Shown in pieces: positions 12,549-33,916 of a stretch of 64,000 nucleotides of DNA. Every line of letters starts with the position of its first letter. The stretch's first letter is position 1. Under the pieces are notes generated by a model. The model saw only the letters and a list, made by a program, of their open reading frames with translations, was not told where the DNA came from and did no database searches. Source of the stretch: Adineta vaga. Taxonomy: Eukaryota; Animalia; Rotifera. The DNA is taken from the NCBI GenBank assembly GCA_021613535.1, contig CP075494.1, forward strand, positions 9,238,001 through 9,302,000. Reading direction: 5' to 3'. A program made the translations under genes and the position numbers.

Positions 12549-15390
12549 TTAATGATGATGAAGTCTGATATCATGCAATGGTTCTACGATATTCTTCAAA
12601 GGTCGACCAAAAAAACGCGTAGAAATCTTATTAATTAATGGAACGACAAGTAATTTACAAATTAAAAATATCATTGCACATAATTCCAGACATAAAAATG
12701 CGAATAAAAGAGTACGAAATATAACTTCGGGTTGTTTAGCAATCGGTGATTGTGTATTTTTAATATAATACGATGTTTCACTTATATCAATGGTGATACT
12801 AGTTGATGTAAGATTAGCTGATATTCTATATTCTTCAGCTGTGAGAAACATTTCAGAAGAACTGTATGTAAATGTAGGATACCATATTCCTCCAAATTTT
12901 TCATCGTCGTCATTGAACAATGACTCAGTTTGATTGATAACCTAAAAGAAATGGATTCAATAAAAACTAGACAATTATTTGAAAGTATCAAATTACTTTT
13001 GTTAAAGCCATCTTAATTATTGGTGATTGTGAAAGAGTTTCTAAAGATTGACTATAAAAGGTTTGAAGAAAATTCAATTCCTTTAATGTATATGAATCAC
13101 GTTCCTGACCAGCACCTGAAATACCCACACGTAGTCCACCAATCAACTGAATATCGCTTACAACTGCTTTGATAGTTAGAGCATGTTCAGATAAACGAAT
13201 CGTTGTAGAAACTGTTCCATTTAAATTAGAACATGATAAAAGTGCAACGGATGTTGTTGAAGAGTCAGTGACTTCATAAAGAGCAATTTTTATACATGAT
13301 GTTACAGTATTGAGTAAATCAATTTGTAATGTAAAATTTTGGGCATCTAACAAATCGAATATGGGCTTTTCTTCAGTTGATACAGGAACAGCTAATGCTT
13401 GAAGATTTGATTGAAATTGTGCATTTCGAAGACTAGAATCACAAGCAAATTTTGATCCTTGAGTCGTTTCGATTGGATATTGATACATATAAGATATTGC
13501 AAATGTATATGCCATAATAGACATCAAGATAACTGCTATCGATGCAAGTCCACCTAACCACATTTCGCCTTCACCCTAAAAATATTTCAATTCGAAAATA
13601 GAATGATTGTTATAATCATCGATATACTTACTACAAGGTCTGTTCTTTGAAAAATACTCTTGATAGTTGTGCGATAACGTTCTCGTTTGTGTGGTTGCAT
13701 GCACCAACTAAATGATGCCATGACAAATAGTAAAGTTAGAAATAAGAAACATAATATCAATGTCCAAAATATTGGAGAAATAAGTAAACAAGATGTTGTT
13801 GTACCTAATGTAAACATATTTTGTAGAAGAATATCTTCAAATGAAGTCATATCTGGTGAACGAGGATATGCATATGCTTGACTAACAGAAATGAGCGAAC
13901 TTGAATTAAGTTCATAAGCTGCTCCCAATGGGCAAAAACTATTTGATGAACAATTTATACATGTTGAACTAGGTTTGAACCTGGATTTCTTGTTCCATTT
14001 GCACAAATATGACATGGATGAATACCAGTATCAGATTTATAAGTACCTGCAATACATGTAGTTGGATGACTAATGACAGGCATTGCAGCAGCTATTGGTG
14101 AATAGGTTGTATCCGTTGATGCATAAGAACCAGAATTTTCAGCTAAAATAATAAGAACACCACCATCAGTATCAAGTATAGCAAGTGAAAAAGATGAAGA
14201 AACCATGCGAATTAATTTCGGATTAATTGTTGATGGTATCGGTTGTTGAGTATTCGGTATAACAGCTGATGGTGATGAAGGTAAAGTAATATTACTGAAT
14301 GATGTATATAGATACACTTTTGAGAAATACCATGTTAGATAATTAGTTGAATAAGATGAAACGAGAATGGTTGCGTGTGATTGTGTTAACCAAGCAACAT
14401 CCTTACCATAACCAACTGTTTCTCCATTATCAACATAACTAGCTAGCGTCAGATTTGACCGTTAGTAACAGTAAATAAGAAGACTGTATTCAGAAAGGGC
14501 ATTCCAACAAGTACTCGTGTTGAATCATCGGAATTGATCTTTACTGACATCGTATATTTGCTACTCCAAGTGTCCACACCTGAATACGTTAATCGTGATT
14601 GCCAAGAACTATCAGTAGCACTATAAGACCATGTTGATAGAACGGTTAAATTGGTATTGGAAATTAAATAAACAGTTGGTGTTGCACGTATGCGTGATCC
14701 AGATGAACCAGCAACAAAACCAGCAACAATTGTAAATGTTCCACTAGTATCGGCTGCTAATGGACTAAACGTTGAATTATTTGGCCAAATCTGTGCAGCA
14801 GACACAGTCGTTGCCATACCGAATGAAAACGGTCGATAAATAAATGCAAAATCACTAGCTAATCCAATTGCATACTGTCCATATGGTTCAACAGCCATGA
14901 CAAAAAATTCTTGATCGTCATATGCACCAAAAAATTGAAGATCTTCAACTTGAAAATAGTTACATGCTAAAGATTGTCTGGTTAATAAATAATGTTCAAT
15001 ATTAAGTGGATCTTGATTAACCCAAACACCAATGAATGTACCATTTCGACCTGAATGATCGGTATCCGAACCATCATCAGATGCAACATTACCAATAATA
15101 TAAAAATAAACATCTGATGTTGTATTTTGTTTTCGTCCGACACCAACTGAATAAATATAATGTGAAGAATCATCATAATCAAAGGAACATTGCAATGAAT
15201 CAAATACATAATTGTAAGGAGCAAATTGAACAAGAAATGTGCCTCCTTCATTCTTTGCTTGGACGAACAATACATCATTAATAGCAATCTTCACACCATA
15301 AGCATCGTTATCCGATTTATCAGGAGAAAAACAGTTGAGAAACAAATTTTCATAGAGTAGAATCCAAAGAAAAACAAATCGTACGATCAT
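12549..15390 (-). CDS. Membrane protein: signal peptide, beta-rich ectodomain, Cys-rich ephrin-receptor-like (GCC2/GCC3) repeat, ~3 TM segments; two 1-nt frameshifts as assembled
   Basis: CIAGTYKSDTGIHPCHICANGT...CINCSSNSFCPLGA; hydrophobic segments IFWTLILCFLFLTLLFVMA, WLGGLASIAVILMSIMAY and TLLFAFLCLELCAMIFLI. Introns near 13.6 kb and 12.95 kb; frame breaks at ~14459 and ~13975. Confidence 0.6.
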
Positions 15391-16323
15391 TTTGTTTTCA
15401 ATACTCTTTAGAAAAAAACTACGAAGTTTATTTTTTCTTGTTAAGTATAAGAATGCAACTAACTACTCTTTTATATATTTTCTCTATGCTATGATAATTG
15501 TTAACAACACTACTGAAAATTAGAAAAAAGTAATTTTCTAATTTCCCTATAACGTACTATGTTTGAATATTAACGAGCCGTTTTCTTGATCAAAATATTT
15601 TGATTGCGTATGAAGTTCTTATCCAGTACTGTTCGACATTTTATTATGAAGAATGACTAGGAATTAATTGAACTTCTCTTCAATCGACGTTTGGAAACTT
15701 CGATAAAAGAGGAAAAACAGCAAGAAACAATCGACTAAAATATGTAATAGTTCGGCTTTTTATGAATTAAAAACAGAAACTTTCCGTATTAGAAAGCGCT
15801 TCTATGGAGATATATTTGTTTGAAAAGTCATTTTATTAAATATTGAAGAAGGTGCATCTCAAACCAAAAGAATATTTAATGGACTTTTCTAGTTCCATAT
15901 TATTAGTTAAGAAGATGACTAGGTCATAGTTATGTAGAGCATCGCAACAACAATAAATATACTTTTATGTATTTCGTTAATTATGAAAGTTACAACTACA
16001 TGCACGAGAAAAGTGCTTTGATTAAGTATAGCACTTCATTTTCATGCATAAAAGAGACCAGACAAAATAAGTTTTTTTTTATATTTATTCGAAGAAAATT
16101 AGGGTAATCTTACTTTATAAAAACTTGAAAAGATAGATTGATCAAATATTCTTCAGAAAAAAGTAAAAATATCAACTTCACTTTTCTTTGAAGTAATAGT
16201 TACGCCATCTATTTTCATTCTTAAGTTGCTAATGTCTCCATGACATTCCGAATGGATGAATGGTCGGAAGTAAAATTTTAAAATAAATTTTTTTTTCTAA
16301 AACTATGTCTTTATCTTATTATT

Positions 16324-17935
16324 ATGGGATTTTGTTCTAGCAAAATGGCAGAAAGCTCGAAATATACGTCCCAATCAGATCCATTATCTGTATACGTACC
16401 TCTAGAGTCGCTTACTCAATCAGCTGTTCGTTCAATCATTAAAGTGGCCGTTCCTAAATATATGCCGACATGGGATCATAGTCAACGTACGCTTCTTATA
16501 TTCTTACTTGCAATAGATAAAAAATTGAGAGAGATTGAAAATAATGCAGAGAATGGTGGTGAGAACAAACCTGATGATCATACTATTGAACGCCAAACAA
16601 GTTCGTCAATGGCTAGTGAATAAAAGTAATAAGCCATTGGATTGGGAGAGGCTTCAGCAGAAATATGAAGATACACGCCACGAACATTGTGATGAATTGG
16701 CGTATCAATATGGATTAGAGAAAGCATTTCCTTACTTTGAACTAGAAATCGCAACTGTAAGTTAGATATAATTCATGTACAACTAACGCTTGATCGTAGA
16801 ACTAAGTATGCATCTGTAAATCTATCTATTTAGCGTCACAATGTCGTCAAACAATCTCGTCGTTATATGAATATATTTCGTAAAGACGGCTACAAACCTG
16901 AAGAACTCAAAGTTTACTGGAATGCTGAGCAATTAGAAACTCTATGTCAACAAGATGGAGATGATCCACATAGAATGCCACCACACGATCCGTCAGATAC
17001 CGACGCTATTGAAAATCTTCGAAAATATCCAGTTGCAACTCGGAAACATAGCGGACAAATTACATACGTCGATAAAGGTATCGAAAAAGCGGTTTTCGAT
17101 ATACCTGACGATGCTCAAGTTATTGTTCTAAATTTTGCAGTAAATTTCATGATAAGTAATTTCTATCACCTGTATCTCAATTCTTTAGAATGAACAATCA
17201 CCAGGTGGCGGTTATTTACGACATGCAAGTAAGTAGTATTCATGTCAACTAAGTTATACTTATTAAAGAAACATATTTGACACTTGAATAATTCATTGAT
17301 TCTATTTTGTTTTATCTAGTGGCACAAGAAGAAGTTATTCTTTTTAATTCGGATGGTTATCGAGCATTAATGGATCTCAAGTATCAGCGAATGGGTGGTG
17401 GATATGCAATACCAGAATTTGGATTAGCTTATGTACGTAATATGTGCTTCTTCGATGCAAATGATGAGAAAAGATATCGTAAAACTGACATGTTAGTTTC
17501 TGCATGTTATTGTATGAACGGTGCTGAACTTTACGAGAATCCACATCCTCAAGAGGTAAATGTTGATGAACTCATGTAGAATAGTTGTTTTTATTTGAAA
17601 AATATCAATCAATCATCACATTTCTATTCTAGTGGAAAGAAAATAATTTAGCGAAATTTCGTGCCTTCATGGCTGCAGCTGTTGCAAATACTATTGGTGA
17701 TGGAAAGAATACCTATCTTTTACTTGGTCCTATTGGCACGGGAGCATTTGGAAATAATGTCGATGCTATAGCTGAAGTTTTCGCTACAGTATTGGATATG
17801 GAAATGATGGGTTCGGATGGACCAATTCGATATGCTTTCGAAAACATATGGTTTGTTTCTATAGATGCGTGGAAGAACACTGAATTTCGGAAGTATATAC
17901 CTGATAAGAAACCTAACAATAATGAGGAGAATTGA
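16324..17935 (+). CDS. Microbial-type poly(ADP-ribose) glycohydrolase macrodomain (TIGR02452/DUF2263-like)
   Basis: Splicing introns 16559-16601 (putative), 16757-16833, 17140-17188, 17229-17319 and 17556-17632 gives VIVLNFANEQSPGGGYLRHAMAQEEVILFNS (PARG signature GGG-x7-QEE) and LLLGPIGTGAFGN (diphosphate-binding loop). Confidence 0.85.
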
Positions 17936-18181
17936 TTTTTTTGTATTTTCTTATCAAACAAAATAGTCTAATATAACGAAAGGATGCCACTCTTTTTATA
18001 TTATATTCCATAGAAAGTAAGTCATCAGTCGACTGCGCGCTTGATACAAGAAAAACGATGAGACAAATACAACAGTGCAGGTAAAAAAATAGAATCTGTA
18101 TTTTATTATTTCTCCTGCATAAAATATATTATTATGATACAAAAAAAGATTGGAATAAAATAAATATACGAGTTCTAAAGA

Positions 18182-20440
18182 TTATTGTTGATGTGCATCA
18201 CCGTAAAAAGATTTTTTCCACCATTTTGACGGTGTCAATGTTGCTGGATCGATGTCTGTTACACGCATCATCAAGCCATAACAGATAATGTCATCTTTGA
18301 TAAACTCTTGACCGTTTTTACCTAGTATAATCCACTCCAGTTCGCTATTCTTGAAATTTTGATCTACTATCACAGTTTGCTTATATTCATCTTGTATTAA
18401 CGTTTCAGGACCAACAAATTTAATTGATGCCGGATTTACACGACATTGGAAGACTAATTGATACCATAATGATTGACCATTTTTAGTTGTTTCTTTCCAT
18501 GGAAAAGCATATCGTGGATGTGCACAGTATTCAATACTTGGTGAAACATAAACTCGTGATTGTCCATCACCAAAGAAACATCCAGTTGTGCTAACCTTGA
18601 GTCCTGAAGTAAGTATCTTTGACGCGTTTTCACCACGAGTTCCGTGATAGGCCATATACCAGCTGCCCCATTTAGAATCAAATTCCTTCTCATCTTCAGC
18701 CACTTTAACACCAAAACGTTTCCAACCTATACATAAAAATTGGCAGATATGAAGATAATGATAAGACAAAATCGTTCTCTACTAACCTGATGGACAAAAA
18801 TAAGGTTTTCCTCCTTGATTAATGGGAGTTGCCCAAAAGTGTGCCTGAGGCTCACCCGGTGCCCAACCATACTTCTTATTCCATCTGGGATCCATAAGTC
18901 TATTTTCAATTTTTAATCCAAATTCACCAAGTGTTATTGATTCAACATGTGCGTCGACATCTAAACAACATTTACGAACGGCATACATTCGTGCCACAGC
19001 ATCAGCAGCACCACCATTTAAACTATCGACAACTTTTTTACCGTATGGTGGTAAAACACATAGATGAATGATAGCTTTTTCACGATCAACACGGATGATA
19101 CGTATTTTATTCTTTGGTACACCAAATGCTTCACATAGATTATCAACAAATCGTTCACGAATACCACCTTTATTTGTATCCCATTGATTCATATAGGCAT
19201 CATCCGCATCCAATTGAATCATGAAACCTAATTCGTCACCTGAAATATTGAAAAGAAAGCAATTACCATAACTATAAGTTTGAATAGAAAAATAAGAATG
19301 TTACCTTCTGGATCGCGAATATCACCCGAAATGATTGGTAAACTTTCTTCATTACTATCCCTTTGTTTACTCACAGTTTTCTTTAATTGTTTATTGAATT
19401 GTTGATCATTACCTGATCCAACAGCTAATCGACATAATAGAGCTGCTAGAGCAAGTTTCTTAGCTTCTTGTGCGATTCGTTTTCGACCATGTCTTGCTCT
19501 GGCATTTTCCAGTTTCTCTTCATCTAAGATAAAATTAAATTAAAGAAAATGAGTATTTTACATTATCAATTGACATACATGGATCTTCTTCCTTTTGATT
19601 ACGAATTTCATCACGTTGTGCAAGCCATCTTTGTGCATACTCAATAATTTCATCGATTTCTCTACCATTCAATCGATCAATCAATTCATCAGCATCAACT
19701 TCATTTCGTTTATCTTCATCGATCGATAAAAGTTTTCGAACAAATTTACGTACTATATCAAAATATGTAGGCTCAACAGGTATAACTTGTCTAGCAGCAA
19801 TTAATTTCTTTGCATGTGTTATTACTCGACTTGTTGGTGATAGAATAGCAAAGTTATTTTCTGTAATAGTTCCATTAAATTTTTGATTACGTTGATTAAT
19901 ATCTGCTATCTTAGATCCATAAGTATCTTTCCACCATCTGTGAATATTTCGAATAACATCATCTGAATCACTTTTTTCTATTAGTGCATACAAATCTTTG
20001 AAATTATTTTCAAAATCTTGTTGACGACGAAAATAATCAATCGTATCATTACAAATTTGAACGAATTTCGTTGAGTTTGGTAATGGTTGAGCTAAGTTCC
20101 GTAAACGTAATAAATAGTTTGCACATGCACCAACTTTTACTGATAGTTCAGCACGTAACGAATCGATACAAGCCGGATCATCTATCACTGTTCGTGTTTT
20201 ACTTGGTTCTGCACCACTTTGACGAAGATCGTCACAGAATTTATCAACAAATGCCTTCTCTTTATCATGTGAACCTTTGTCTTTAGGTGGAGGTCGCTTT
20301 TTAATATAATCTGCTTGTTGCTCTTCAATTCCATGACATTCTTCTTCTTCTTCTTGTTTAATTTTTTCGATACAATCATCAATTAATTGAACTTGATCAT
20401 CGATAAAATGATTAAGACAAAAAGCTAGATCTGTATCCAT
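18182..20440 (-). CDS. ADP-ribosyltransferase: N-terminal helical region plus C-terminal NEURL4-like PARP-fold ART domain; 4 exons
   Basis: GGKPYFCPSG|WKRFGVKV, WYMAYHGT (H), ILTSGL, RVYVSPSIEYCAHPRYA (Y), YQLVFQCRVNP, ELEWII (E). Exons are joined by short GT-AG introns at ~19524-19578, ~19240-19304 and ~18727-18786. Confidence 0.8.
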
Positions 20441-20914: not shown

Positions 20915-21832
20915 TCAAACAAAGTCATCGAGCGCTTTGAAATAATCTGCTAAACGTTTTGCAACTAGTTTAACGTGTACTTCTTCATTTAATTGTGTAT
21001 CACGATTCCATACGGAACAAACACCAGTTTTTAATGAATTATCATCAAGTTTTATATGAAATGGTATATAATCATCAATATCTCTATCGATTACACGTAC
21101 AACACGTAAACGATATTTATATGTTAATAATTTTGAAATATATAAAGACAGTTCAGTTGTTTTTAATGTTGCTTTGATTCCAATTTGATGTGGTGTTAAT
21201 AATGGATGTAAACATTTCATTTGTGAATCGAATAATAATGAAATTAATGTATGGTTAATATTTAATGATAAATCTAATGAAGAATTACTATTATTAGATT
21301 GAATCATTTCAAGATTATATGGTTCAGTATCAGATGAAAAACGATAATTAATGTCAAATTGATTTTGCTTTGATGATAAAAATTCAACCTTTTCGCGACT
21401 AGAAAAATATTTCTTCCAAAAACGTGTTCGTTCATCAGCTAAACGTCTAAGATTGATTTCTTCGGTTGGTTCTATATATTGTACACGAAGATAATCATCA
21501 TCATTATTATCGGTAGATTCTTCACGTTTAAGAATCACTGGTAGTTCAGAACGATTTGTCGTAAGTTTGGTTTGCCAAGCAACAGTCATACTTGGAGTTG
21601 GATTGACTATTTGATCGATTGAATCGACCCAAAGAAATTGATAACGACCAGAACTATTCCGTATGAAAGATTGAATCCATTCATGACGAAAATTGAAGAA
21701 AAGATTGGATGTAAGTGGTTCGTAATTAAAGATTGAAGGAGAAGAAGGATCGATACGGTTGGAATTAATAGATGGAAGTTTTAGAAAACCAGAAGTTAAA
21801 CCTTTTTGAACAAATTGTTTAATTGATAACAT
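20915..21832 (-). CDS. POLG2: Mitochondrial DNA polymerase gamma accessory subunit, intronless
   Basis: ERTRFWKKYF, LHPLLTPHQIGI and the anticodon-binding-like C-terminus IPFHIKLDDNSLKTGVCSVWNRDTQLNEEVHV match the POLG2 pattern. Confidence 0.75.
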   Translation of the reverse strand: MLSIKQFVQKGLTSGFLKLPSINSNRIDPSSPSIFNYEPLTSNLFFNFRHEWIQSFIRNSSGRYQFLWVDSIDQIVNPTPSMTVAWQTKLTTNRSELPVILKREESTDNNDDDYLRVQYIEPTEEINLRRLADERTRFWKKYFSSREKVEFLSSKQNQFDINYRFSSDTEPYNLEMIQSNNSNSSLDLSLNINHTLISLLFDSQMKCLHPLLTPHQIGIKATLKTTELSLYISKLLTYKYRLRVVRVIDRDIDDYIPFHIKLDDNSLKTGVCSVWNRDTQLNEEVHVKLVAKRLADYFKALDDFV

Positions 21833-22457
21833 GAAAGCGAATATGAGATAAGTAAAACTACGATTTTCATAGAGAACTTCTTCTATTGGGATAATTTTAG
21901 ATTCGTCTTATCAATATTTCGATTTGATTTTATGTAGATGGCGTTCGTTACGTTAGAAAAATATTTGTGTTGCTACGATGGAACATATAATTTCGCTTCG
22001 CTAATTTATATTGAAAAATAGAATTTGATAATCTTAAATAGATTCTTGTCTGTTCAAAGCATCGGTCTCGGTCAGGAACAAGTGATCAATTTTTCAATTA
22101 ACTTTTAATTATTTTATATTTGAAAATGTTGTGTAGGTGGGCCAGATGACTTCAACAGATGTCACTATTTATTACCAAAGAATATGTTGAAATAATAATT
22201 TGATTTTGGATTAGATAGATAGAAACTTTCAATTGATACAGTTATTTCCCAGTATCTTACTTTTTCATTACAATGAATTCTTCGTCGTAATCATTATCTC
22301 ATTGCCGGATATCAATCCAATCATAACAGAGCAATTGTTTTCATCAAACAAGCTGACTGACTTCTCTTCTCTATCGTTAGTCAGTATTACGATTGCGAAG
22401 TGAAAAGTAAAAAATAACGTGTTAATCATCAAGTTTCTATTTCTATATTTAGATCAG

Positions 22458-31757: not shown

Positions 31758-32759
31758 CTACTGCATAACAGTCGGAACTCTGTTCATAGTTCTCATACCT
31801 AAATTCATCGGAAGTACAGCGTCTCGTCGTCGATACAATTGGGAAATTCTCTTGATGTTTTCTCGTATTGTTGGTATTGTTCCCATCGTAACAATTGGAA
31901 AGAGGAGCAATGTATAGTAAGTGGCGTATGTGATACGATTTAAAAACACGGCACCAAAATCAGATGACATGCCACATAGCTGTAGAAAATATATTAACAT
32001 GGCAGGAAACACGAATAATAAATATATAGTTGAAATCATTGACACTTGAACTATCATCTGTAGATATTGTCGCCACTGAATCTGTCTTCGCATCTTATGT
32101 CTTTGCCATAAACTACGTATTAAGAGAAAAATACTAGAAAAAACAATAGTGAATGTAGGAACTATTGCATGGGTTATAACATTACATAAATTAAGCGCAT
32201 TGATGTCGTAACTGCAAGGATAGTTAAATGAGATTTGTATGCTGTCGAAATGATTCTCACACGGAAAACCAAAGAAGATTATTGTCTGATATGTGAAAAT
32301 GTAGATAGTTATAAGAATTGGAGGAAGATAATGAATAAGAATACGTTTCTTTCTCGTGGATACGAGATGGTTATGAAAGATCAGAATATGTCTTTCAATT
32401 GTTAACCAAGCAAACAGTATAACATGATGAAAATAAAATGTCCAATCAATATATAGCCAAATTGTTCGAAGGATTGTATTCCCCATGAAGGAGTCGTAAG
32501 TTCGAAAAAAATGAATTAGTAAAGAGATATCTGTCATTAGACAAAATAGATTGAAGATTAGAAGAACAATTATGACATGGTGATGAAGAGCTTGATGAAG
32601 TTGTTGATCTCGAATGAGATAATATAAAGTGATCAATGAACAGATCAGTGATGGAATAATCAAAACAAGAAAGATCCAAAATTGAATTACAAAAGTTTGT
32701 CGAGTGTCATCATCGAATAAAGAAGAATAATCCGAAGAAGTACTGTTAGAACTTGCCAT
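31758..32759 (-). CDS. Intronless class A (rhodopsin-like) orphan GPCR
   Basis: 333 aa with seven hydrophobic segments and a divergent DRY-equivalent TIERHILIFH. Confidence 0.8.
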   Translation of the reverse strand: MASSNSTSSDYSSLFDDDTRQTFVIQFWIFLVLIIPSLICSLITLYYLIRDQQLHQALHHHVIIVLLIFNLFCLMTDISLLIHFFRTYDSFMGNTILRTIWLYIDWTFYFHHVILFAWLTIERHILIFHNHLVSTRKKRILIHYLPPILITIYIFTYQTIIFFGFPCENHFDSIQISFNYPCSYDINALNLCNVITHAIVPTFTIVFSSIFLLIRSLWQRHKMRRQIQWRQYLQMIVQVSMISTIYLLFVFPAMLIYFLQLCGMSSDFGAVFLNRITYATYYTLLLFPIVTMGTIPTIRENIKRISQLYRRRDAVLPMNLGMRTMNRVPTVMQ

Positions 32760-33916
32760 GTTGAAGTTGAAAGGAATTTATACTGAATAACATTAGACTG
32801 TAAAAATACTTTGAAGAAATAAAGCATTAAAACTTCGGTATATTTGTAGTCATTCATGTATTCCTTGTATATTAGATATCATTAAACTGAAAGTACAGAA
32901 ATTATTAAAGAATACAAAGAAACGTGTGCTGGTTTAAATAGAAGTAATCTTTTCATTCCGAATTATGAATGAAGAATCACGTCATGTCAGATAAAAATAA
33001 TACAATGCAATTAGTGAGGATAATTTTTTATGTTAATGAACGCCTGATAAACCGTGAAATACATCTTTATTTATAGCAATATTATAATCGTATCCATATT
33101 GTCGTGATAGTATTCATCGTGTTTCTCATAATTCAATGATCAAAACAGAATATTTTGTAGAATTTTTATGATGATAGCCAAATATATCTGAATCTTTTTG
33201 TATAAAAACAGAAAACTCGATCATATTATTCCTTCATCTGCAAAAAGATTGAGCGATTTCGCTGGTTTATTTAGATATGGTAGTGCTATAATCGTTTGAT
33301 ATCATGAATAGTCGAATCTATTGTGATAAATATATGTGAACCATAGGTAGATGTGTTCTACTAAACCACTGCGATCGTAATAATTTATTTGGTTTCATCA
33401 ATAGATTGTCAGTCTACGAAACATTATCAAATACGAAGTGTCGCAAAATGTTTGTACACTTTCGATTTGGCATATATCTAAGCATGGCTAATTCATATTA
33501 GTCTCAATTATTTTTTCGGAAAAATGCACTGCGAAAAACTCTGCAAAAACGATAATAACATATTTCTAATTAAATATGTCAATAATTTGCCCATATAGTT
33601 AGAATAAATCCTGCCAAAATTAACTTGATGATTTATGAAACAAATTTTAATAACCTATTAGAAAAGTTCTCATAGACTACAGGAAACTGTAGGTACTTGA
33701 CTATAAAAGATCTCAAATGAAAATATAGTACTCGCTTTTATTATTCCTAATCTTGAGACAAGAAACGATCATTACAACTATTATGATTCTTTTTTTATAA
33801 CGTTATCAAGAAAATTCATATGCACTTCATTGAAGATAAGTCATGTTTTCCAACAATATAATTATCAAAAAATTCGATTAAATGTTAACAATATTATGAT
33901 TTTATAAGATACTCAA

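Follow-up and report, generated by a model that had tools for sequence, protein, structure and literature searches.

Within 64,000 nucleotides of DNA from the bdelloid rotifer Adineta vaga (contig CP075494.1 of assembly GCA_021613535.1, positions 9,238,001 to 9,302,000 of the forward strand; "the window"), a gene for a microbial-type poly(ADP-ribose) glycohydrolase (PARG) lies tail to tail with a gene for a PARP-fold ADP-ribosyltransferase (ART). The TGA of the PARG gene (+ strand) ends at 17935 and the TAA of the ART gene (- strand) ends at 18182, with 246 bp between the stops; these coordinates agree with a first-pass annotation of the same DNA. That annotation proposed that the two opposing enzymes form a dedicated, reversible ADP-ribosylation switch. 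We think it more probable (roughly 60%) that the two genes became neighbors once, in an early bdelloid, that ordinary gene-order conservation has kept them together, and that their products act in trans, not as a dedicated unit. If so, the locus is a caution: conserved adjacency would be the norm in bdelloids and no evidence of a module. What the locus would supply is two intact, expressed, and uncharacterized ADP-ribose enzymes, along with a corrected gene model for PARG.

The pair is not confined to A. vaga. Among 54 ART loci from metagenomes, 16 are close to the A. vaga ART (69% identity or above). PARG is on the opposite strand just downstream of ART in 12 of these 16 loci, and the remaining four end within 114 bp of ART. 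Across the orthologous loci, the ART-PARG spacers are ~50-380 bp. We also looked up the order of protein accessions: a PARG accession is no more than 60 numbers away for 47 of 78 orthologous ART accessions (2/3 in A. ricciae, 14/19 in A. steineri, 16/32 in R. socialis and R. magnacalcarata together, 10/16 in R. sp. Silwood1, and 5/8 in Silwood2). At most four accessions were listed per protein, and many of the misses are partial proteins from short contigs. Several of the ART and PARG pairs share contigs 4.8-7 kb long, where an intervening gene would hardly fit, and one further ART and PARG each come from a contig of 16,832 nt. All of the linked ARTs are in one clade of 24 rows (support 97/91 with a midpoint root; the PARG trees are less resolved). 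Therefore, the linked records represent one event.

The surrounding genes have been kept in place as well. In locus L002, eleven genes match the window (with gene limits read from tblastn blocks), and 9 of the 10 junctions have the order and orientation of A. vaga. Excluding the ART-PARG junction, 8 of 9 are kept, one of which skips a gene. The sole break is on the 5' side of PARG. Also, the 5' neighbor of ART is kept in L012, and the 5' neighbor of PARG is within ~2.1 kb in L009. Since most of the flanking junctions are kept too, the adjacency of ART and PARG is likely to be inherited gene order, with no dedicated switch. Convergent genes have no common promoter. And because the convergent 3' ends are so close, the very short spacer would make breaks between these two genes rare.

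Linkage does not extend to paralogs, whose co-occurrence the first-pass annotation had proposed as a check. None of 30 accessions of ART paralogs and none of 63 accessions of PARG paralogs are within 60 accession numbers of a partner, including all of those looked up from Didymodactylos. Similarly, none of the 38 non-orthologous ART loci have a match to PARG, including the nine with at least 1.8 kb of downstream sequence (the profile represented the bdelloid subfamily and could miss distant erasers). Some of those nine unlinked loci have the same full-length architecture. Among 405 proteins, including 230 with the ART domain and 159 with the PARG domain, none carry both domains. Both families are multi-copy: in the first ~7,500-8,000 rows of an A. 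vaga gene table (supplement of PMC12220480), there are at least 6 occurrences of PF10021 and at least 21 of PF00644, and A. vaga has 32,378 genes in total (PMC8494291). (The gene numbers of PMC12220480 differ from the public locus tags: 007286 is an EF-hand protein in one and a PARG paralog in the other.) Depending on the assumed family sizes, the chance that some microbial PARG would lie beside some PARP-fold ART in the genome is very roughly 1-20%. Animals do have fusions of macrodomains and ARTs; one row for A. vaga, for example, has both PF00644 and PF01661.

Other observations weigh against inherited gene order and favor a dedicated writer/eraser module. In such a module, PARG would specifically reverse the mark of ART, and selection would keep the linkage, for example by coupled 3'-end processing, as an immune or stress switch. 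All 12 of the orthologous loci that are testable keep the ART-PARG junction (of 7 sequence types, 6 are testable and all 6 are linked), and by accession order, the pair is kept in six named species of Adineta and Rotaria. So the adjacency is conserved in related species, a check that the first-pass annotation had proposed. Furthermore, in the lineage of L001-L004, a rearrangement broke the block at the other side of PARG, and PARG stayed with ART. No testable lineage has lost this junction and a neighboring one broke once, so we keep the module as a possible but unlikely explanation. The background rate itself comes mostly from a single lineage, with 9 junctions. Accession proximity is an indirect measure of linkage, and the look-up covered 20 ART and PARG clusters beyond the nine orthologous ART clusters. 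The unlinked paralogs are compatible with a specific partnership because proteins act in trans. It is also suggestive that two lineage-specific ADP-ribose genes are side by side among ordinary animal genes (SNF2, LSM14, synaptobrevin, Zic, and Rab).

Beyond the conserved orientation and spacing, a module would fit with the splicing of both genes in the same RNA runs and with the intact catalytic residues of both proteins. The chemistry would be suitable if ART makes chains, as NEURL4 is reported to do (PMC8932523), and the SirTM/Zn-macrodomain pair is a precedent (PMC11490716). A stronger form, in which two lineage-specific enzymes make up a self-resetting switch, a bacterial-style module rebuilt in an animal across Adineta and Rotaria, seems just as doubtful to us. 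A module would mean that an animal has a linked ART-PARG unit, and the enzyme pair could be used to find the targets of NEURL4-like ARTs and their use in asexual, stress-tolerant rotifers. But the linkage arose in a single event, the flanks are kept equally, the paralogs are never linked, and we saw no fusions. Additional ARTs of this clade also exist elsewhere in A. steineri (P0010), with no PARG accession nearby. And PARG may be an incomplete eraser, because a bacterial-type PARG, DrPARG, fails to remove Glu- or Ser-linked mono-ADP-ribose (PMC6445106). Thus, the opposing predicted enzymes and the conserved adjacency stand, while a dedicated switch does not follow from them. Separately, A. 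steineri P0012, P0015, and P0050 form a PARG-ART-ART tandem, by accession order, in several assemblies.

If the two genes are neighbors by inheritance, how would their products work? ART would be an intracellular enzyme (no hydrophobic segment was found in it) that uses NAD+ and H-Y-E residues to add ADP-ribose to proteins, probably as chains, by analogy to NEURL4. Its helical N-terminus and its adaptor-like alpha/beta domain likely switch it on or target it, perhaps in a response to stress or infection; we propose this role because distant relatives carry ubiquitin, WWE, caspase, or kinase partners. PARG would act in trans and cleave ribose-ribose linkages in the poly(ADP-ribose) of this ART or any other of the many rotifer PARP-fold enzymes. 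Such writer/eraser chemistry should work without linkage. A complex prediction for the A. ricciae ART (residues 285-692) and PARG, run without alignments, gave a score of 0.00 and no verdict on the pairing. In A. vaga, ADP-ribosylation genes are induced by desiccation and radiation (PMC10809525), and a desiccation response was among the roles proposed at first. However, R. magnacalcarata still has the pair although it is described as desiccation intolerant (PMC5916493), and this weakens a desiccation-only role. A literature search, which covered few subscription journals, did not find a paper that describes the ART-PARG pair.

We now turn to the evidence for each gene. The last exon of the + gene is 100% identical to A. 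vaga I4U23_024869 (P0046; 365 amino acids). P0046 scores 43.6 bits against PF10021 (cutoff 23.5) and 62.6 bits against TIGR02452 (cutoff 50), so by curated cutoffs the predicted protein is a microbial-type PARG, in agreement with the first-pass annotation. The microbial PARG motif is defined as GGG-X6-8-QEE (PMC4245714). In the rotifer gene, GGG-X7-QEE appears only after exons 2-4 are spliced, and splice joints in RNA contigs support this splicing. When the family profile was compared to PDB, the sole matches were the PARGs of Deinococcus and Thermomonospora, whose GGG-X7-QEE and GxGxF loops line up with those of the profile. Thus, the protein is like bacterial-type PARGs (T. curvata 3SIG and D. 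radiodurans 5ZDA) in exceeding both cutoffs and in aligning at both loops; it differs in belonging to a bdelloid subfamily, in its helical N-terminal extension, and in the four introns of its gene. Among 88 matches to PARG, every named one is from a bdelloid, and there is one weak, bacterial-looking match (31% identity over 35%). A. vaga has at least 3 members of this subfamily. Bacterial-type PARGs in rotifers have already been mentioned (PMC6445106, PMC4245714). We found no relatives of either gene in prokaryotic genomes or viral contigs, using pattern scans, which depend on the conservation of short words and carry little weight as evidence; co-transfer of the pair from a microbial or viral donor is unsupported by these negative scans. 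A second deep clade of bdelloid PARGs (P0079, P0080, P0084, P0085, and P0092) has PGGY instead of PGGG in the catalytic loop and retains QEE.

Both genes are expressed. Our evidence is contigs from four runs that we presume to be RNA; contigs from three of these skip introns, and X19 has only short unspliced pieces. Because introns are skipped, the PARG gene and the ART gene are both transcribed and spliced. All of the splice joints are GT..AG. The translation of the four ART exons is identical to A. vaga hypothetical protein I4U23_024870 (P0001; 692 amino acids), which also has 100% identity to the last exon. There is a poly(A) tail for PARG behind 17989, an RNA contig for ART extends to 18142, and one RNA contig spans the entire spacer. 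The two 3' ends thus lie near each other, and certain transcripts may overlap there, although a contig that spans two genes is no proof of a single transcript. In all 58 pairwise comparisons, across both genes, dN/dS was 0.09-0.60 (dS is near saturation in the deeper pairs), so by sequence comparison both genes are under purifying selection.

In the window, the frame of PARG from the ATG at 16324 ends at codon 100. One might propose that the pair is decaying or non-functional, either because this frameshift is a real null allele or because PARG cannot cut the mark of ART. The low score of ART against PF00644, which is below the cutoff, would be consistent with this. We consider it improbable. 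Two extra bases are present at 16591-16593 in both haplotype contigs of each of RNA runs X11 and X13, and these restore the frame. In all four DNA runs, long contigs start at 16594, and none of the DNA contig rows listed, which omit 10, shows the insertion. With an X at the break, PARG has an open frame of 439 codons that is 69% identical, over 431 amino acids, to the A. ricciae ortholog (P0144), and the repaired frame is 60-70% identical, over its full length, to seven orthologs. Exon 1 is also open in L002 and L009. The missing 2 nt likely reflect a heterozygous site that was assembled wrongly, but they may be a rare null allele. The catalytic residues of ART are widely conserved (see below), and dN/dS is well under 1 in both genes. 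The public model of PARG (I4U23_024869) is truncated because of the 2 nt missing from the assembly, and it lacks ~75 residues of the real N-terminus.

By motif and by fold, the - gene is predicted to encode a PARP-fold ART with H, Y, and E intact, as was noticed originally. P0001 scores 20.4 bits against PF00644, which is under the gathering cutoff of 26.7 (E = 4e-4). The model of the ART domain has a confidence score (pLDDT) of 93. All of its top 10 hits from Foldseek are PARPs, with modest scores (E = 2e-4 to 9e-4), and all of its top 10 hits from VIA are from the PARP family (Z = 6.7-7.8 and root-mean-square deviation of 3-5; the best hit has Z = 7.8 and a deviation of 4.3). The best matches from the two tools are PARP14, PARP10, PARP15, and PARP16, and Atlas gives PARP clusters at 0.95. 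The motifs are YHGT (18638-18649), VYVSPS (18536-18553), and ELEW (18332-18343), and their H, Y, and E presumably correspond to the triad positions of PARP1. Among 230 members of the family, H539 is kept in 203, Y571 in 187, Y578 in 223, and E642 in 210. We did not find homology between the ART profile and the PARG profile.

The ART was first described as NEURL4-like, and this holds for its motifs only. It has YHGT and ELEW, which correspond to HG[ST] and ELEW; mutations in HGS and ELEW were used to abolish the activity of human NEURL4, and the NEURL4 domain forms chains in vitro (PMC8932523). With the NEURL4-like ARTs described in PMC3417536, PMC8932523, and PMC7955679, the rotifer protein shares these motifs and a PARP-like H-Y-E fold. 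But where NEURL4 has six Neuralized repeats, the rotifer ART has a helical N-terminus and an alpha/beta middle domain. A profile scan found no Neuralized repeats (PF07177) in P0001 or in 44 members of the alignment, and there was no Neuralized domain or NEURL4 protein among the 66 scanned of 150 listed ART representatives. (The lists from Foldseek and VIA contain no NEURL4 structure, so they exclude nothing about this likeness.) On sequence grounds, the ART is not an ortholog of NEURL4. PARG and ART are new members of known families.

With E capped at 0.001, the ART family has at least 470 representatives. Of 66 scanned relatives, 16 carry ubiquitin-like, Hint, WWE, caspase, TIG, or alpha-kinase domains, and the alpha/beta domain (residues 362-450) is common to 16 distant representatives. 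The fold match of that domain is weak (Z = 6.8, with 84 residues superposed at a deviation of 2.8; the model used has low confidence). We considered TRADD-N as its identity, which had no support from sequence searches of Pfam or PDB. For the long helical region of exon 1, no family from Pfam or Atlas matched, and the helical matches to the fold of the whole ART are meaningless, as the single-sequence model is poor (pLDDT of 39). Among the distant ARTs, P0293, P0314, P0276, P0295, P0349, and P0367 have ubiquitin-like, Hint, WWE, or caspase domains, and several of these six have the short N-terminal header motif of the rotifer ART or its alpha/beta domain. This suggests that the distant ARTs are a modular family, without a Pfam model, that is involved in conflict or signaling. 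Other architectures were seen as well. P0017 from A. steineri (533 amino acids) has an arginine-type ART (PF01129) fused to a PARP-fold ART domain, which puts two classes of ART in one protein. L031:9580-11292, P0041, and P0044 have the ART domain and a C-terminal alpha-kinase (PF02816); these are from eukaryotes that are apparently not rotifers. L035:5147-10516 is a single open reading frame of 1,790 codons with repeated helical units and the ART domain at its end, and a GTPase gene is nearby. Two genes upstream of a paralogous ART, L019:4362-6956 is an intronless adenylation-carrier-reductase gene that resembles nonribosomal peptide synthetases.

DarT/DarG is an established linked pair of a writer and an eraser. 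As in DarT/DarG and other bacterial ART-hydrolase pairs, the rotifer ART gene is beside a gene for an ADP-ribosyl hydrolase, so the linkage of writer and eraser is present. Independent recurrence, or linkage beyond background synteny, was not found. Unlike in DarT/DarG, the rotifer genes are convergent and intron-bearing, they are not in an operon, and they are not mobile. There is no sign of operon-like co-transcription, as the genes are on opposite strands and give separate spliced transcripts with separate polyadenylation. The rotifer hydrolase is PARG-type, neither DarG nor NADAR, and the ART is PARP-like: its fold matches PARPs better (Z = 7.0-7.8) than it matches DarT (Z = 4.7).

These differences bear on the suggestion that the pair is a selfish element like DarT/DarG, with ART as the poison and the linked PARG as its obligatory antidote. 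The ART fold family does include toxins, and ART parasites of eukaryotes are known (AACRNL; PMC12957317). R. sordida has an ortholog of PARG with an intact motif, and none of its 6 accessions are near any ART that was looked up; among 45 matches of at least 313 amino acids, there is no R. sordida ortholog of ART. Tentatively, R. sordida lost ART and kept PARG, which is the direction that a toxin-antidote system permits. But orthology is stable at one locus, both genes are under purifying selection, there is no sign of mobility, PADLOC gave no noteworthy match, and paralogous ARTs persist without a linked PARG. Also, drive by linkage requires outcrossing, and bdelloids outcross rarely or not at all. 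We consider a selfish element to be very unlikely, and this part of the first-pass annotation has no support.

Two other systems are worth comparing. SirTM and the Zn-macrodomain are a linked writer and eraser in bacteria and archaea and are fused in fungi (PMC11490716). The rotifer pair is like this system in its linkage; the SirTM system acts in stress response and reaches eukaryotes. The SirTM link recurs as pairs, operons, and fusions, whereas the rotifer pair is one event with no fusion seen. Rotifera also have AACRNL ARTs, which have H-Y-Y, are linked to transposons, and are mono-ADP-ribosylating (PMC12957317). Like the AACRN/AACRNL Crinkler-like ARTs, the rotifer ART would be a conflict-type ART in free-living animals, and some of its distant relatives have ubiquitin-like domains. 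It differs in having H-Y-E, in lacking a ubiquitin-like domain of its own, and in its stable locus.

Table 1. Features of the PARG and ART genes, in positions of the window.
Feature	Position	Strand	Evidence
PARG exon 1, N-terminal helical extension common to the bdelloid subfamily	16324..16756	+	RNA joint 16756/16834; frames on either side of the break match orthologs
2 nt absent relative to RNA contigs, frameshift in exon 1	16591..16593	+	insertion in haplotype contigs of X11 and X13
PARG exon 2	16834..17139	+	RNA joints 16756/16834 and 17139/17189; agrees with P0046
PARG exon 3, 40 nt, PGGG of the catalytic loop	17189..17228	+	RNA joints 17139/17189 and 17228/17320
PARG exon 4, QEE at 17325-17333	17320..17555	+	RNA joints 17228/17320 and 17555/17633; GGG-X7-QEE
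PARG exon 5, GPIGTGAFGN loop at 17726-17755, stop	17633..17935	+	RNA joint 17555/17633; translation; profile alignment
Spacer with both 3' untranslated regions, 246 bp	17936..18181	.	RNA contigs
ART exon 4, predicted PARP-fold catalytic domain with H539, Y571, Y578, and E642, stop	18182..18723	-	RNA joint 18784/18723; PF00644 E = 4e-4, below cutoff; model; structure matches; conservation
ART exon 3, covering the alpha/beta middle domain (~residues 362-450; perhaps SEA/ferredoxin-like) and the first part of the ART domain	18784..19237	-	RNA joints 19303/19237 and 18784/18723
ART exon 2, helical	19303..19523	-	RNA joints 19579/19523 and 19303/19237; translation
ART exon 1, with the ATG and a long N-terminal region that is helical	19579..20440	-	RNA joint 19579/19523; translation

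Several neighboring genes in the window are also worth describing. A single-exon gene of 330 codons (20918-21907, - strand) adjoins ART in L001-L004, L008, and L012. It may be POLG2-like, but it had no match in Pfam or PDB. A receptor-like open reading frame of 339 codons (31761-32777, - strand) has no match in Pfam and is missing from the otherwise collinear block of L002. Upstream of PARG is a multi-exon gene for a membrane protein (12552-15462, - strand) without a Pfam family; a second copy of this gene, ~80% alike, is present in all four DNA runs.

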